Shown here: positions 3,107 through 42,973 of the stretch, piece after piece
Layout: every line of letters begins with the position of its first letter
Numbering within the stretch: position 1 is the first letter of the stretch
Sequence record: OZ035812.1
Reading direction: 5' to 3' (one strand)
Origin: Kagunavirus LM08P1
Length of the DNA stretch: 42,973 nucleotides
Made by a program: the position numbers and the translations under genes
The notes under the pieces: model-generated
Seen by the model: only the letters and a program-made list of their open reading frames with translations
What the model was told of the DNA's origin: nothing
Database searches by the model: none

Positions 3107-3139
3107 CTGAATAGTACCCTATTATATTGGTGTCTGCAA
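3107..3139 (-). promoter_or_regulatory. sigma70-like promoter with palindromic operator-like core (family 1), minus-directed
   Basis: Minus strand reads TTGCAG-N17-TACTAT with TATAATAGGG inside spacer; core TGAATAG-N4-CTATT inverted repeat; sits 24 nt upstream of minus gene start 3083. Confidence 0.55.
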
Positions 3140-3183: not shown

Positions 3184-4227
3184 ATGAGCTTACTTACATC
3201 CCTAATCAGCCACCAGATATGGCTGCAACGCACCGCATCCGGTGAAGTGAAAGACCTTGCGCCGTTTCTTCAGGAAATGCGGGACGAAATCAAACGGCAG
3301 GTCCTGTTATTCGGTGACGACGGGCGAAGCACTGCGCGACTGAATAAACTGTTGCGCGACCTCGAAGAAGCACTAACCGGACTTACCGGTGACTGGCAAA
3401 CAAAGCTGACAGAAGACCTTAAGGAGCTGGCAGCGTATGAGGCTGAGTGGAACACAAAGACACTGGCCGCCAACGTAAATGCGGAATTTGTTACGCCTAC
3501 TGCCGAGCAAGTGTGGGCCGCCGCCGAGTTTCAACCCTTATCATTAAGCGACAAACCTGTCGATTTCACTAAGCTGATGGATGGCTGGGGTGAAACCGAA
3601 GTCGCGCGCCTGGTAACTGGCGTTAAGATGGGCTTTGTCCAAGGCCAGACGACACGGCAGATTGTTAAGAATGTTGTTGGCGCTGGTGGACTAGCCGACA
3701 TCTCAGAACGTAACGCGACTACGGTAATCCGCACCGCGCTGTCCCACGTATCCAACGAGGCCCGTAACGAGACGTACCGCCAGAACGACAACATCATCGA
3801 GAAGTACGAGTGGGTGTCAACGCTTGACAGCCGCACCAGTACGATTTGCAGGGTCAGAGACGGGATGACGTGGGAAATTGGTAAGGGGCCGATGCCCCCA
3901 GCCCATCCGAACTGCCGGTCGTGCACGGCTCCGGTAATCAGTTCCGAGTTCGACTTCCTCGATAAAGGCGCAAAACGCGCGGCTAAAGGAGCGGACGGCG
4001 GTACTCAGGTAAGCACGGACACCACCTATTACGAGTTCCTTAAACAACAACCGGCGTGGTTTCAGGACCAGGCGCTCGGCCCGGTGCGAGGTAAGATTTT
4101 CCGTAACAGCGGTATATCGCCGGAAGAGTTTCGCGTAATATCTGTAGATGGTTTCGGGAATCCGCTCACGCTTAAGCAGATGGCGGAACTCGATAAACGT
4201 GTTGCTGATTATCTGAAAGGGGAATAA
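3184..4227 (+). CDS. head morphogenesis / minor head protein (Mu F / SPP1 gp7-like)
   Basis: ORF frame 3127..4227; most likely start ATG 3184 preceded by AGGAGGG; C-terminal region with conserved Cys/His pattern (STICRVRDG...PPAHPNCRSC) recalled as Mu F-like; position after portal. Confidence 0.65.
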   Translation: MSLLTSLISHQIWLQRTASGEVKDLAPFLQEMRDEIKRQVLLFGDDGRSTARLNKLLRDLEEALTGLTGDWQTKLTEDLKELAAYEAEWNTKTLAANVNAEFVTPTAEQVWAAAEFQPLSLSDKPVDFTKLMDGWGETEVARLVTGVKMGFVQGQTTRQIVKNVVGAGGLADISERNATTVIRTALSHVSNEARNETYRQNDNIIEKYEWVSTLDSRTSTICRVRDGMTWEIGKGPMPPAHPNCRSCTAPVISSEFDFLDKGAKRAAKGADGGTQVSTDTTYYEFLKQQPAWFQDQALGPVRGKIFRNSGISPEEFRVISVDGFGNPLTLKQMAELDKRVADYLKGE

Positions 4228-4691: not shown

Positions 4692-4720
4692 GAGGCCCCA
4701 TAATGGGGCCTTAGATTTTT
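4692..4720 (+). terminator. intrinsic terminator hairpin
   Basis: GGCCCCA-TAA-TGGGGCC hairpin followed by T-rich run TTAGATTTTT. Confidence 0.55.
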
Positions 4721-5025
4721 CCTATTAGATTTTTAATTCTGTCGCGTTCTATTCTTTTCCCTTCTTCTACTCCCTCATTGAAGTATCTTTCTACATCATC
4801 CTTATTGACCTTACGAACTGCTGCGCCCTCTTTATATAGCTCTTGATTGTCGCGCAATACCTTAATCTTAGCGATTATTTCATTAAAAGGTGCGTCAGCA
4901 CGTATTTTGAGCATAGACCTTACCTGTTCTACGAACCATGCAAAATTAGGCTTTTTTGATAATTTCTCTCTTAAAACAGCGTTCTCTTGTTCCGCTTTTG
5001 TGGCGCGAGCACGATAATCAATCAT
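4711..5025 (-). CDS. hypothetical protein (opposite-strand, AT-rich gene in head module)
   Basis: 104 aa ORF on minus strand, lysine/glutamate rich; ATG at 5025; promoter element at 5063..5095; visibly more AT-rich than flanking structural genes. Confidence 0.55.
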   Translation of the reverse strand: MIDYRARATKAEQENAVLREKLSKKPNFAWFVEQVRSMLKIRADAPFNEIIAKIKVLRDNQELYKEGAAVRKVNKDDVERYFNEGVEEGKRIERDRIKNLIGKI

Positions 5026-5062
5026 TTTAGCAAACCTCTATCTTCATTAAACAGCACCAATA

Positions 5063-5095
5063 ACTGAATAGTACCCTATTATATCGGGGCATGTA
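5063..5095 (-). promoter_or_regulatory. sigma70-like promoter with palindromic operator-like core (family 1), minus-directed
   Basis: Minus strand reads TTACAT-N17-TACTAT with TATAATAGGG in spacer; nearly identical to elements at 3107, 14187, 36341, 37776. Confidence 0.55.
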
Positions 5096-5111
5096 AACTA
5101 TTTATTTACGT

Positions 5112-5162
5112 ATTCCAGTTATTCCACTCAATTGTAAATGTTGGAATAAACTATTCGAATAG
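5112..5162 (+). promoter_or_regulatory. cluster of GGAAT/ATTCC motifs and 12-bp palindrome CTATTCGAATAG immediately upstream of promoter
   Basis: ATTCC at 5112 and 5121, GGAAT at 5143, perfect palindrome CTATTCGAATAG 5151..5162 abutting the -35 hexamer at 5163. Confidence 0.35.
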
Positions 5163-5191
5163 TTGACTTTTCACTAAAAATGTGCTAAGCT
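5163..5191 (+). promoter_or_regulatory. sigma70-like promoter (TTGACT-N17-TAAGCT, extended -10 TG) driving structured RNA element A
   Basis: -35 TTGACT 5163..5168, 17-nt spacer, -10 TAAGCT 5186..5191 with TG two nt upstream; same hexamers and spacing at 36032..36060 while spacer sequence differs. Confidence 0.55.
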
Positions 5192-5197
5192 CCACCT

Positions 5198-5397
5198 GAG
5201 CTTGTGAAGTATGAACAAGCGACCGCGGCGCGGGCAGGTAACGGAGCGGGACGTAAGTCCTGAGTGTAGTTACGCTGACGCGTTCGGAAGGGCCATACTC
5301 TATTGCTTGTGTAAAAAGTAACTGGTTTACTGAGATTACGCCGTTTCTATGTTTAAATGATAAGGACTAGCGCCCCGCTTTATGGCGGGGCTTTACT
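5198..5397 (+). ncRNA. candidate structured noncoding RNA / leader element, copy A (unidentified family)
   Basis: About 200 nt between promoter and terminator hairpin (5371..5391 + T-run); shares conserved blocks with copy B (36067..36300) with hairpin-preserving substitutions; no reading frame conserved between copies. Confidence 0.5.
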
Positions 5398-5415
5398 TAT
5401 CGAGAAAGGAGAAAC

Positions 5416-5802
5416 ATGAATCTTAAAGCAACTGTCGTAGCAGGAGCATGTTTCATCATCCTGTTATACACGCACGGCTACTATCAATACCGCAGCGGCT
5501 GGAACGGAGGCAGGGCTAATCTAGTTTCGCAGCAACAGCAGAAAGCACAGGCTGAGTTAGCGAAGAAAACACAACGGCAGCAGCAGGACGAATCAAAGGC
5601 CGCCGCCGCTGACAACGAAGGCAAGACGAAATCAGAGGTGATTACCCGTGAAGTCGTTAAGTACATTAAAACGCCTGGCCGCAGCGTGTGCACTTTCGAC
5701 GATGCTCGCGTCCTGCTCAAGTCCCGCGCCGTCGCAAACGCCAATTCCATCCCCGGATACGACGATGATGCAGCCGCCGTGCAAACTGGCTCCGCCAAGT
5801 AG
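5416..5802 (+). CDS. putative inner-membrane spanin (Rz-like)
   Basis: 128 aa; N-terminal hydrophobic helix (VVAGACFIILLY), Q/K/A-rich predicted coiled region; contains overlapping out-of-frame lipoprotein ORF, the classic Rz/Rz1 architecture. Confidence 0.5.
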   Translation: MNLKATVVAGACFIILLYTHGYYQYRSGWNGGRANLVSQQQQKAQAELAKKTQRQQQDESKAAAADNEGKTKSEVITREVVKYIKTPGRSVCTFDDARVLLKSRAVANANSIPGYDDDAAAVQTGSAK

Positions 5803-5911
5803 CGACGCCGACGAGGATTTAGCTATCGACGTTCAGAACGCCGAATGCGTACGGCAACTGCGCCTGAAGGTGTTCATGTTGCAGGATTACGTGAGGAATA
5901 TTCTGGAATAG
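5648..5911 (+). CDS. putative outer-membrane lipoprotein spanin (Rz1-like), overlapping in +1 frame
   Basis: GTG start with RBS GAGGTGA; signal peptide ending in lipobox LASC; proline-rich mature region (SPAPSQTPIPSPD...QPPCKLAPP); starts inside 5416..5802 in a different frame and extends beyond it. Confidence 0.5.
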   Translation: MKSLSTLKRLAAACALSTMLASCSSPAPSQTPIPSPDTTMMQPPCKLAPPSSDADEDLAIDVQNAECVRQLRLKVFMLQDYVRNILE

Positions 5912-5993
5912 TTGCCTTGCATGTTGGAATAATTTATTCTTGACATGTAAATCCGGGTGGCCCGGATTCCAACGTCCAGGGGACATACTGACT

Positions 5994-6695
5994 ATGAATC
6001 GTTTTTTACGTTATCCGTTCCAGGAAGAAGCTGGAACAGAAGATAAATCCGGTGGCGGTGACGCGCCGAAAATGTTCACCGCTGAAGAAGTTCAGGCGCT
6101 GATTGAGAAAGAAGTTGCCGGGCTTAAGGCTAATCAGGAAGCATTGCTGGCAGAGAAGAAAGAAGCCGCCCGTAAAGCAAAAGAGGCTGAAGAAGAACGG
6201 CAGCGCGCGCACCAGGAGGCATTAAAAGCCGCCGGTAAGATGGACGAGTTCGAAAAAACGATTCGTAGCCAGTATGACCCGGTGTTAGCCGAGAAAGATG
6301 GCCGCATCTCCAGAATGGCGGAGCGCATCCTCGGCAGCGAACGTAAAGCGGTGTTAGGCTCTTTCGCAGGTGATTTCATCACACCGGAAGCAGTAGACAT
6401 TCTTGCTCCGTTCGTTAAGACTGAGTTCGAAGGCGATGACGTGGTTACTAAGTTTGTAGGCGCAGACGGCAATGTAATCACGACTGACCCGGAACAGTTC
6501 CGCAAATACCTGCGGGAACACAAAGCATTTTCGCATTTGATTAAAGCAAATGCAGCTTCCGGCGGCGGGGCTTCCGGTAGCAAAGGCGGCGGGGCCGCAC
6601 CAGCGTTTAAAGACATGAGTGAAGCGGAGCGTTTAGCTCTGTATAAATCGAACCCTGCCGAATTTGAACGGCAACTTAAAGCCCTGAGGAAATAA
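5994..6695 (+). CDS. scaffolding protein
   Basis: ORF frame opens at 5940 (TTG); first ATG at 5994; highly charged K/E/A-rich predicted coiled coil; directly precedes major capsid gene. Confidence 0.55.
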   Translation: MNRFLRYPFQEEAGTEDKSGGGDAPKMFTAEEVQALIEKEVAGLKANQEALLAEKKEAARKAKEAEEERQRAHQEALKAAGKMDEFEKTIRSQYDPVLAEKDGRISRMAERILGSERKAVLGSFAGDFITPEAVDILAPFVKTEFEGDDVVTKFVGADGNVITTDPEQFRKYLREHKAFSHLIKANAASGGGASGSKGGGAAPAFKDMSEAERLALYKSNPAEFERQLKALRK

Positions 6696-26017: not shown

Positions 26018-26272
26018 TTAGTTAGATAATTCGGCTTGAACTTGCTTAATAAGTTCTCCAGCCGTTGTGAAGTCTACGGACAGCCGTTTAGCTACGTCTT
26101 CCGCAAGCACTTTGCGGCCAACCGACCCGAAACCCAGGATACGGTTTACTTCCGAAACCTTCATATACCATGAGTAATTAACTGATGCCCCTGTGTACTT
26201 ACAGATTCGAACAGATGAATCGATTGAACCCATAATCATGGTATTTACTGACAGTTGAAGTTCGATAGCCAT
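26018..26272 (-). CDS. hypothetical protein
   Basis: 84 aa; RBS AAGGAA; preceded by strong minus-strand promoter 26307..26335. Confidence 0.5.
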   Translation of the reverse strand: MAIELQLSVNTMIMGSIDSSVRICKYTGASVNYSWYMKVSEVNRILGFGSVGRKVLAEDVAKRLSVDFTTAGELIKQVQAELSN

Positions 26273-29958: not shown

Positions 29959-29988
29959 AATATAATAGCTAACTATTCAGGTGTCAAC
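29959..29988 (-). promoter_or_regulatory. sigma70 promoter (TTGACA-N17-TATATT) with palindromic core (family 2), minus-directed
   Basis: Minus strand reads TTGACA cctgaatagttagctat TATATT; core TGAATAG-N4-CTATT; upstream of start 29905. Confidence 0.55.
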
Positions 29989-39127: not shown

Positions 39128-39436
39128 TTGGATAAATTTACTGAAACAGTGACGGGCTGGCTTCTCGCTGCCGCACTCGCCGGAGGGGTCATCGGACTAC
39201 GACAACATAAGTCCGTTATTTCTGGCCCTATCGACGGCTTCTGCTTCATCGCTACTGGTTTCGCCTGCGCCGTATTTGGCGCCCCTCTTGCAGCTCAATG
39301 GTTCGGTATCACGGGCGACCGTGAAATCGCTGGCCTGGGCTTTATCATCGCTATTCTCTGGATGCCTATTTATTCCCGTCTCTCCGGTATTGTTGCCGGA
39401 GAATACATCTCACGTCGAGGAGGCCCGGATGAATGA
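39128..39436 (+). CDS. putative holin (multi-TM small membrane protein)
   Basis: 102 aa starting at TTG with GGAGG upstream; three hydrophobic segments; immediately upstream of endolysin. Confidence 0.45.
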   Translation: MDKFTETVTGWLLAAALAGGVIGLRQHKSVISGPIDGFCFIATGFACAVFGAPLAAQWFGITGDREIAGLGFIIAILWMPIYSRLSGIVAGEYISRRGGPDE

Positions 39437-39701
39437 GTTATTCTGGTTCGCCGTAATGTTGGCGATGGGCGCTTCGTCCCTGTTCAACGTGTATAATGAA
39501 TGTGTTGACGACGGGCTATTCGGTCGGGTGCTCTATATCCTGACTGCTATCGTCTGCGCCGCCGGATGTATCCACCTGTTACAGGGCAGCATGTCACCTA
39601 CGCTGCCAGAAACCTTAATCACATTAGTTGCGCTGCGCCAGATTCGTCAGGCGTGGCTGTCATACGGAGGACATAAGCGTGTCTCGAAATATTTCAGATA
39701 A
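39429..39701 (+). CDS. second small membrane protein of lysis cassette (holin/antiholin-like)
   Basis: ATG 39429 after GGAGG; 90 aa with two hydrophobic segments; overlaps endolysin start. Confidence 0.4.
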   Translation: MNELFWFAVMLAMGASSLFNVYNECVDDGLFGRVLYILTAIVCAAGCIHLLQGSMSPTLPETLITLVALRQIRQAWLSYGGHKRVSKYFR

Positions 39702-40164
39702 TGGATTGCATTTTACCGCTGCGTTTGAGGGATTCCGTGGAACCGCGTATCGTGCTACACCAAACGAGAAGTACTTAACCATAGGCTACGGGCACTACGG
39801 GCCAGACGTGACCCCCGGTAAAACCATCACCCCGGGCCAAGGCCTCCTGTTACTGAATCGCGATATGGCTAAAGCCGTAGCTGCGGTTGATGCAGCAGCA
39901 CGCCATTCATTGACACAGGCACAGTTCGATGCAGTGTGCGACCTGGTGTATAACGCTGGTGCTGGTGCCATTGCGGCTACTACAGGCACGGGTAAGGCCC
40001 TGCGTTCCGGTGATATTTCGACGCTGCGGGCTAAGCTGACGCTGTTCATCAACCAGAACGGCAAACCGTTACTCGGCCTGCGTCGCCGTACCGCAGGCCG
40101 CCTGGCGCTGTTCGATGGTAAGCCGTGGCAAGAGGCTGAGGCTATCGGGAGGGCTGTTAAATGA
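39679..40164 (+). CDS. endolysin (lysozyme-like muramidase, GH24-type)
   Basis: ORF frame 39628..40164; proposed GTG start 39679 with GGAGG upstream; motif FEGFRGTAYRATPNEKYLTIGYGHYG consistent with phage lysozyme catalytic region (from memory). Confidence 0.75.
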   Translation: MSRNISDNGLHFTAAFEGFRGTAYRATPNEKYLTIGYGHYGPDVTPGKTITPGQGLLLLNRDMAKAVAAVDAAARHSLTQAQFDAVCDLVYNAGAGAIAATTGTGKALRSGDISTLRAKLTLFINQNGKPLLGLRRRTAGRLALFDGKPWQEAEAIGRAVK

Positions 40165-42367: not shown

Positions 42368-42460
42368 TACATCCCGCCCAATCCCCTTATATAATCCCTT
42401 TAGACGCGTAGGGCGCGTCTGGTGCGCTCTGATGGTCAGACGCATATGCAAGGGGATTCT

Positions 42461-42973
42461 ATGAAGCTGAAACTCAAGCAGCCATCGCCAGAGGTGGTGC
42501 AAGCCGCGCATGAAGAGGCTGTTAGTGCCAACCGTCGCCGTAAACGGCCACGCGGCAAACAGAGCCTTTACCAGTCATCCCGTAATTCTGCGGCATTGTG
42601 GGACCCGGACTATTGTGACGAACTGATTCGTTTCTTTGACCGCAACTCGTGGGAACTTGTGCCCACGTCCAAGGGTGATGAACGTCCTCTTATTCAGGAT
42701 AAGCCCCCGTCACTGGCCCGCTTCGCCTTACACATCGGCGTCACTATCCCTATTATTAAGCTTTGGCTGCGTGAGATTCCCGCATTTGCAGAAGCCTGGG
42801 AGACAGCACAGGCGCTGGAAGAGGCATACTTCACTGAGACAGGGGCTGCGGGCATCTCGGCTACGTTTGCCGCGGCTAAACTGGGCCTCAGCAAAGAGAA
42901 ACCGGTTGCATCCACCGAAGAACCAGCACCGACTGAGATTGTTTTCAGTGTTGCGGAGCCTGTAGGTAAAATC
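42461..42973 (+). CDS. terminase small subunit (3' end runs off window; frame continues at 1..33)
   Basis: ATG 42461 with RBS AAGGGGA; 171 codons without stop to window end; HTH-like segment SLARFALHIGVTIPIIKLWLREIPAFAEAWE typical of small terminase DNA-binding domains; not in ORF track because no stop inside window. Confidence 0.7.
   Translation, partial: MKLKLKQPSPEVVQAAHEEAVSANRRRKRPRGKQSLYQSSRNSAALWDPDYCDELIRFFDRNSWELVPTSKGDERPLIQDKPPSLARFALHIGVTIPIIKLWLREIPAFAEAWETAQALEEAYFTETGAAGISATFAAAKLGLSKEKPVASTEEPAPTEIVFSVAEPVGKI

Follow-up and report, generated by a model that had tools for sequence, protein, structure and literature searches.

The window examined here is the whole 42,973-nucleotide sequence of Kagunavirus LM08P1 (sequence record OZ035812.1). 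Two overlapping open reading frames (ORFs) lie on its plus strand among the genes of the head module. The first (5416..5802) encodes a 128-residue protein with the features expected of an inner-membrane spanin subunit (i-spanin), and the second (5648..5911) encodes an 87-residue precursor with the features expected of an outer-membrane lipoprotein subunit (o-spanin). The two ORFs very probably constitute the two-component spanin of Kagunavirus, a member of the “Jersey” family of overlapped spanins. Across 901 bases around this locus, Kagunavirus LM08P2 is 98.6% identical to LM08P1, and many Escherichia phages of the genus Kagunavirus (Guernseyvirinae) are 95-98% identical, with matches found in 328 phage records. 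For comparison, we used 48 related loci from IMG/VR, 47 of them with the full spanin pair and one with only the 3′ part of the i-spanin gene. A same-architecture set of 45 sequences comprised LM08P1, IMG/VR loci, and reference phages.

The i-spanin gene begins with an ATG codon that is preceded by the Shine-Dalgarno sequence AGGAG (5407-5411). Residues 1-19 of its product have the highest Kyte-Doolittle mean in the protein (1.63, 19-residue window), no second hydrophobic segment is present, and of the other 104 residues 28% are charged and 10% are Gln. These values agree with the sequence-only reading of this DNA, which had described 5416..5802 as a charged protein with an N-terminal transmembrane segment. 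An AlphaFold2 (AF2) model made from the single sequence (mean pLDDT 60.6) contains helices at residues 3-64, 66-84, and 94-107 followed by a disordered C-terminus, and its N-terminal helix is in line with the single transmembrane domain (TMD) predicted there. A Cys residue at position 92, in the predicted periplasmic domain, is retained in all 45 same-architecture sequences. The protein matches the PHROG family phrog_2536 (“Rz-like spanin”) with an E-value of 1.1e-55, and it is 90.6% identical to gp06 of phage K1G and 62-76% identical to its counterparts in Salmonella Jersey-like phages.

The o-spanin ORF is in the +1 frame relative to the i-spanin gene ((5648-5416) mod 3 = 1) and overlaps it by 155 nucleotides. 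Its GTG start codon lies 9 nucleotides downstream of GAGG, within a Shine-Dalgarno sequence (GAGGTGA, 5635..5641, plus strand) that is itself inside the i-spanin gene. The precursor begins with MKSLSTLKRLAAACALSTMLASC and fits a PROSITE PS51257-type lipoprotein pattern (ACALSTMLASC), in which residues 20-23 form the lipobox L-A-S-C and Cys23 is the predicted lipidated residue. The mature protein would have 65 residues, with 26% Pro in the first 35. The residue after the lipobox Cys (+2) is Ser in LM08P1 and Ser, Gln, Ala, Arg, or Asn in relatives, and is never Asp. Two additional Cys residues, at precursor positions 45 and 67, are present in 45 of 45 same-architecture sequences. In the single-sequence AF2 model (mean pLDDT 62.2), a helix at residues 4-23 is followed by a disordered Pro-rich linker (24-54) and by an amphipathic, charged C-terminal helix (55-86) with pLDDT values of about 78-89. 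Profile matches were obtained to phrog_1267 (residues 8-86, 2e-18) and phrog_5672 (residues 41-87, 4e-30), which are both annotated “Rz-like spanin.” All three PHROG families matched by the pair are placed in the lysis category. Both the pattern match and the composition bear out the earlier description of 5648..5911 as a +1-frame lipoprotein with the lipobox LASC and a Pro-rich mature part.

In a genome-wide scan of ORFs with a lipobox, a clear Shine-Dalgarno sequence (GAGG) was present only upstream of the o-spanin ORF. Lipobox-like ORFs at 26255, 30524, 39276/39321, and 42675, and on the minus strand at 2330 and 15802, were rejected; they lack a clear Shine-Dalgarno sequence, and those that were located are inside or in frame with other ORFs. 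One of these corresponds to the ORF of the second holin (see below), which can be extended upstream in frame from GTG 39321 (39321-39701) to give a lipobox-like start, MKSLAWALSSLFSGC. This extension, which has no Shine-Dalgarno sequence and lies inside the first holin gene, is probably spurious. No spanin-like gene was found after the endolysin gene, and the genome contains no other spanin candidate. The o-spanin also differs from a unimolecular spanin of the T1 gp11 type, in which a single protein combines a lipobox at its N-terminus with a TMD at its C-terminus, as no 19-residue window of the protein exceeds a hydropathy of 1.2; the maximum, 1.16, is in the signal peptide.

It might be argued that 5416..5802 is the sole real gene at this locus and that the +1 frame is open by chance. 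Many GenBank records omit the o-spanin or annotate only a 48-residue piece of it. Moreover, the i-frame is the better conserved of the two inside the overlap, where differences in the o-frame are mostly nonsynonymous (2883 synonymous versus 11701 nonsynonymous). However, an open +1 frame with a lipobox was found in all 47 full-pair IMG/VR loci, as well as in the related phage Schulenburg. The start position is occupied by GTG in 43 and by ATG in 2 of the 45 same-architecture sequences, behind a GAGG core that is present in the six commonest upstream variants of this set. Past the i-spanin stop codon (106 nucleotides), variation falls mainly at positions that leave the o-spanin unchanged: o-frame third positions account for 28 of the 48 variable sites, and codon differences number 7219 synonymous versus 2253 nonsynonymous. 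The o-frame in this part is under purifying selection, and the probability that it is a chance open frame is negligible.

Selection also appears to act on the export signal. The lipobox varies among relatives (LASC, LSAC, LTSC, MSAC, LSGC, LNGC, and ITGC), each form retaining the Cys. In one IMG/VR locus (L037, 3001-3589), the i-spanin has only 118 residues, the overlap is reduced to 8 nucleotides, and the o-spanin begins with an unrelated signal peptide, MNKLFLSAVIIGITGC, that ends in the lipobox ITGC. The C-terminal half of this o-spanin is conserved despite the replaced signal peptide. Because the lipobox is kept within a different signal peptide, it is the presence of a lipoprotein signal that is under selection, not a specific sequence. 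Kongari et al. 2018 (PMC6139136) described the same layout for FSL SP-031. Within the o-spanin as a whole, the C-terminal helix is the best-conserved segment, with a mean pairwise identity of 93%.

The start of the o-spanin gene is misannotated in several database entries. In Schulenburg, fBC-Eco01, and other GenBank records, the protein is truncated to 48 residues (MMQPPCK..., from an internal ATG), a version that corresponds to 5765-5911 in LM08P1 and to 3666-3812 and 1835-1981 in the loci L001 and L051, respectively. The 48-residue version has neither the signal peptide nor the lipobox, and phrog_5672, a 47-residue profile, is likewise truncated. K1G is annotated from the correct start, the conserved GTG/ATG at 5648.

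An overlapped two-component spanin family named for phage Jersey, and including K1G, K1H, K1ind1-3, Jersey, and SETP3, has been described previously (Kongari et al. 2018, PMC6139136). In this family, the genes overlap by 155 bp, the o-spanin has constant Cys45 and Cys67 residues and a conserved alpha-helical second helix that forms its C-terminal part, and the i-spanin has two helices and a variable, unstructured C-terminus (PMC6139136). The LM08P1 pair agrees with the listed overlap and Cys positions, and its predicted helices agree in outline. Its correspondence to gp06 and gp07 of K1G is especially close, with the same gene lengths (387 and 264 nucleotides), the same 155-nucleotide overlap, and the same Cys45/Cys67 pair. 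In the K1G RefSeq record, gp06 and gp07 are annotated as Rz-like spanins, gp07 is marked as an overlapping gene, and both lie between Hoc-like and scaffold genes as they do here. The K1G and LM08P1 pairs show only strain-level sequence differences and are the same thing in another isolate. In Schulenburg (also written Schulenberg; MK931438; PMC6763661), the DNA of the locus is 95.9% identical and the full 87-residue o-frame is present, though annotated as 48 residues. The features of the sequences, their PHROG families, and their conservation in relatives thus uphold the earlier proposal of a signature two-component spanin pair.

That proposal had also called the pair “Rz/Rz1-like,” with the second ORF embedded in the first. 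The likeness in design holds. As in phage lambda, a predicted type II inner-membrane protein is paired with a predicted outer-membrane lipoprotein whose gene uses the +1 frame of the same DNA, and the two systems share periplasmic Cys residues and a Pro-rich o-spanin. The embedding does not hold, and the architecture is instead overlapped as in P2 and Jersey. Whereas lambda Rz1 is fully embedded and the lambda pair comes last in the lysis cassette, the LM08P1 o-spanin gene runs 109 nucleotides past the i-spanin stop codon and the pair is unlinked from the cassette. In addition, the mature LM08P1 o-spanin, at 65 residues, is longer than lambda Rz1 and has a C-terminal helix. By analogy, we expect that the pair works like Rz/Rz1 but without detectable sequence homology to them.

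The LysB/LysC genes of P2 are located within the lysis cassette of that phage. They too belong to the overlapped class (Kongari et al.), but to another sequence family. The T4 spanin genes PseT.3/PseT.2 are, like those of LM08P1, far from the holin (t) and endolysin (e) genes. Again as here, the o-spanin of T4 is of comparatively large size, and a C-terminal helix is predicted for it (Kongari Fig. 8 legend). However, the T4 pair is “separated,” not overlapped, and represents another sequence family. A distant homologue (37-39% identity) was recognized in Dhillonvirus GeorgBuechner (Bas16), where the genes again overlap and are again in the head module, in this case between the minor and major capsid genes. 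The Dhillonvirus pair directly follows the minor capsid gene, without a promoter or leader RNA, and a reverse-strand gene separates it from a hypothetical gene that precedes the major capsid gene.

The head-module position proposed in the sequence-only reading is confirmed for LM08P1, and the comparison with related phages that it recommended gives the same result throughout. The gene order is head-morphogenesis (MuF-like), Hoc-like, i-spanin, o-spanin, scaffold, and major capsid in 48 of 48 IMG/VR loci. A location between MuF-like/Hoc-like and scaffold/capsid genes in every relative raises the question of whether the products are head-assembly or virion proteins whose hydrophobic N-termini are incidental. 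This explanation is very improbable. A lipobox with an invariant Cys, retained even in the L037 variant with its replaced signal peptide, implies export and lipidation, which are incompatible with head assembly in the cytoplasm. The PHROG families of both proteins are classed under lysis, and the Dhillonvirus pair occupies another place in the head module, which points to a movable cassette and not to a gene integral to assembly.

The remaining lysis genes of LM08P1 are found at 39128..40164 on the plus strand, as previously proposed and as now borne out by PHROG matches. They comprise holin/antiholin 1 (39128..39436; phrog_2359 holin, 2.9e-29), holin/antiholin 2 (39429..39701; phrog_2508 holin, 4.9e-34), and a lysozyme-type endolysin (39628..40164; phrog_33703, 7e-47, and phrog_7, 7e-41), for which the start codon within the ORF is uncertain. 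Counterparts in Schulenburg are annotated as an antiholin/holin class II (holin 1) and as an endolysin similar to that of P22. The spanin genes had been described as about 34 kb from this cassette. The separation is real, but the distance depends on the way around: from the endolysin stop to the i-spanin start is 8.2 kb across the junction of the sequence ends and 33.2 kb the other way. A terS ORF spans these ends (42404-42973 joined to 1-33) and agrees with Schulenburg TerS to the stop codon, so the LM08P1 sequence is that of the whole genome, circularly permuted and opened inside terS, and the figure of 34 kb partly reflects the opening point. Headful packaging has been reported for relatives (Schulenberg announcement, PMC6763661), and the K1G RefSeq record is circular. 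The interval across the junction holds small early-type ORFs followed by the terS, terL, portal, MuF-like, and Hoc-like genes.

The same separation is present throughout the group. No holin or endolysin gene was found within 3 kb of the spanins in any of the 48 relatives, and in the complete Schulenburg record the spanins map to 6.5-7.0 kb and the holin and endolysin genes to 41.1-42.2 kb. The separation is stated in the Schulenberg announcement (PMC6763661) and in the fBC-Eco01 paper. It is also evident from Golestan, with spanins at ORF7/8 and holins and endolysin at ORF66-68 (PMC7203180), and from Jerseyvirus SeF1, with spanins Gp_009/010 and lysis genes Gp_063-065 (PMC9409062). The T4 genes pseT.3/pseT.2 are likewise unlinked from the lysis genes of that phage (Kongari et al. 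2018, PMC6139136). The separation of the spanin genes is conserved, old, and already published, and the arrangement is not new. The original observation and its main interpretation are correct, while the novelty they implied is not, as this is a published spanin family in its usual position.

The architecture of the pair suggests how its products would act, and we infer their topology, complex formation, and lytic function by homology to this architecture. The N-terminal helix of the i-spanin would anchor the protein in the inner membrane, with its helical domain projecting into the periplasm. Translation of the o-spanin would initiate at the internal +1-frame GTG, and the precursor would then be exported, lipidated on Cys23, and cleaved by signal peptidase II. 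Because the +2 residue is Ser and not Asp, the mature lipoprotein is expected to be sorted to the outer membrane. The two proteins would bind each other through their C-terminal regions, forming a complex that spans the periplasm and is stabilized by disulfides (i-spanin Cys92; o-spanin Cys45 and Cys67). Enclosed by the peptidoglycan mesh, this complex would remain inert up to the point at which the holins (39128-39701) release the endolysin; when the wall has then been degraded, it would complete lysis by disrupting the outer membrane. Since its activity would be gated by wall degradation rather than by the timing of synthesis, spanin genes need no linkage to the cassette.

Several points weigh against this interpretation. 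Pfam gave no significant match for either protein; the best was DUF2514, with an E-value of 0.011 and 16.2 bits against a cut-off of 26. Because there was no Pfam match above the curated cut-offs, no lambda Rz or Rz1 family was detected. Confidence is low in both single-sequence AF2 models (mean pLDDT about 60-62), and a position in the head module would also be expected of a morphogenetic or virion protein. No published test of lysis function was found for Jersey-family members, and the functional assignment is thus one of architecture and annotation.

That no lysis test and no significant Pfam match were found, together with the lack of linkage to the holin and endolysin genes, would also suit a pair of spanin look-alikes with a non-lytic function in the envelope, such as superinfection exclusion or receptor masking. 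T5 Llp and Cor are examples of phage lipoproteins with functions of this kind. We consider this explanation improbable, although somewhat less so than a role in head assembly. A TMD protein together with an overlapping lipoprotein in the +1 frame is a specific signature of two-component spanins, and the periplasmic Cys residues are conserved in both partners. The high conservation of the C-terminal helix of the lipoprotein fits binding to a partner. In Schulenburg, the annotation assigns superinfection immunity to a separate, Imm-like protein. Finally, a Gram-negative host normally demands a spanin, and the pair is the only candidate in the genome. For these reasons, we favor the assignment of the pair as a Jersey-family spanin with a function in lysis.

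Upstream of the spanin genes is a 390-nucleotide intergenic region that contains a putative promoter, P1 (5163..5191, plus strand), recognized by reading of the sequence and by conservation. It has the -35 element TTGACT (5163-5168), a 17-nucleotide spacer, and the extended -10 element TGcTAAGCT (5183-5191). An alignment shows that the -35 element and TGnTA(A/C)GCT are kept in both Kagunavirus-type and Jersey-type loci, and the palindrome AACTATTCGAATAGTT adjoins the -35 element. A second putative promoter, P2 (5912..5940, plus strand), starts right after the o-spanin stop codon and would serve the scaffold and capsid genes. It has the -35 element TTGCCT (5912-5917), a 17-nucleotide spacer, and the -10 element TATTCT (5935-5940), and both hexamers are kept in the two types of loci. 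The direct repeats GAATAGTTGNCTT and ATGTTGGAATAAnnTATTC are common to the P1 and P2 regions (5138-5169 and 5906-5940), where they occur in swapped order, and a shared 19-mer has two copies in the genome compared to 0.03 expected. The palindromes AACTATTCGAATAGTT and GAATAATTTATTC in these regions could be regulator-binding sites. On the contrary side, P1 and P2 both fell below the threshold in a scan for consensus sigma-70 promoters, in which the sole hit was on the minus strand (5097-5068). Because the scan found neither, the argument for the two promoters is one of conservation and repeats.

Between P1 and the i-spanin gene is a structured 5′ leader RNA (5192..5415, plus strand). The sequence-only reading had noted an “RNA element A” directly upstream of the pair, and folding and covariation confirm that a conserved, structured leader lies there. 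The leader, of about 200 nucleotides, has a minimum free energy of -80.8 kcal/mol (z = -3.19 versus shuffles). The consensus structure has 98.4% of its cells paired, and compensatory changes were counted in 9 of its 32 pairs, although a single split between clades accounts for most of the double changes. Slid controls gave 34-54% paired cells and at most 3 compensatory pairs. Across 178 phage records the leader is 95-99% identical, even in Salmonella phages whose spanins share only about 65-75% identity. Its 5′ end (5201-5210) pairs with 5395-5404, directly upstream of the i-spanin Shine-Dalgarno sequence. No credible Rfam match for the leader or the locus was obtained, either with the whole genome at gathering thresholds or with 5050-6050 at E-values up to 10.

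The leader ends in a GC-rich hairpin (5372-5391) that is followed by the i-spanin Shine-Dalgarno sequence. A role of this hairpin as an efficient terminator that would isolate the spanin genes is not supported. Its U-tract is weak (UUUACUUAUC) and is poorer still in the Jersey-type leader (UUAGCGUAUA), so substantial read-through is expected. The structured leader also contains a 36-residue ORF (5211..5321), for which Schulenburg and fBC-Eco01 carry a hypothetical-protein annotation. This ORF is probably non-coding because the region is deleted in the Jersey-type leader.

A late transcript would run from P1 through the structured leader into the spanin pair, its first coding unit, and on into the scaffold and capsid genes. 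P2 would add to the transcription of the scaffold and capsid genes, leaving the spanins at a lower dose. A separate expression level for the spanins, which the earlier reading had also raised, is plausible, given the conserved promoter and structured leader upstream of the pair and the promoter-like site downstream. One possibility is that the leader is a cis-regulatory RNA through which the dosage or timing of the spanins is set independently of the holin-endolysin cassette and also of the head genes. We hold this to be rather unlikely, though not far-fetched. Candidate modes of action would be partial termination at 5372-5391, occlusion of the ribosome-binding site, or stabilization of the transcript. 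The spanins of Dhillonvirus have no leader of their own, and therefore the leader RNA is not an obligatory partner of the family.

Several other features were noted near the spanin genes. Downstream of the Hoc-like gene is a bidirectional terminator-like hairpin (4692-4712). A minus-strand gene next to it (4711..5025; 104 residues, phrog_10768) has no counterpart in the 48 IMG/VR loci, while Schulenburg and fBC-Eco01 carry other genes there. Because counterparts are absent from these loci, the slot is considered variable. On the other side of the spanin genes, a GC-rich hairpin in the 5′ untranslated region of the scaffold gene (5950..5971, plus strand) was recognized as a conserved inverted repeat. 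It has the form AAATCCGGG-TGG-CCCGGATT and is followed by CCAGGGG(A/G); its stem is kept across loci as its loop and flanks vary. A similar hairpin is present in Jerseyvirus and in Dhillonvirus GeorgBuechner (L052, 4680-4700), where it precedes the hypothetical gene that comes before the major capsid gene. The hairpin may be a stability or translation element for the head genes.

A 20-nucleotide motif, TGAATAGTACCCTATTATAT, occurs in 8 copies compared to 0 expected. It is located on the plus strand at 3108, 5065, and 14188 and on the minus strand at 29960, 32817, 32862, 36353, and 37789, and is intergenic at the sites checked. The same sequence was reported as a “phage promoter” consensus from PHIRE for fBC-Eco01 (fBC-Eco01 paper). 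Its reverse complement contains TATAAT. These phages are not known to encode an RNA polymerase of their own, so the motif may be a host-type promoter or a regulator-binding site.

The phages of this group provide a clean natural example in which spanin genes need no linkage to the lysis cassette, and members of the same spanin family occupy one point of the head module in Guernseyvirinae and another in Dhillonvirus. There is also a practical consequence, as database o-spanin entries that lack a lipoprotein signal can be corrected to the start at 5648. The unannotated structured leader is the sole element at the locus that might repay experimental work. If it is indeed a cis-regulatory RNA, then it would represent a dedicated RNA control of spanin expression.

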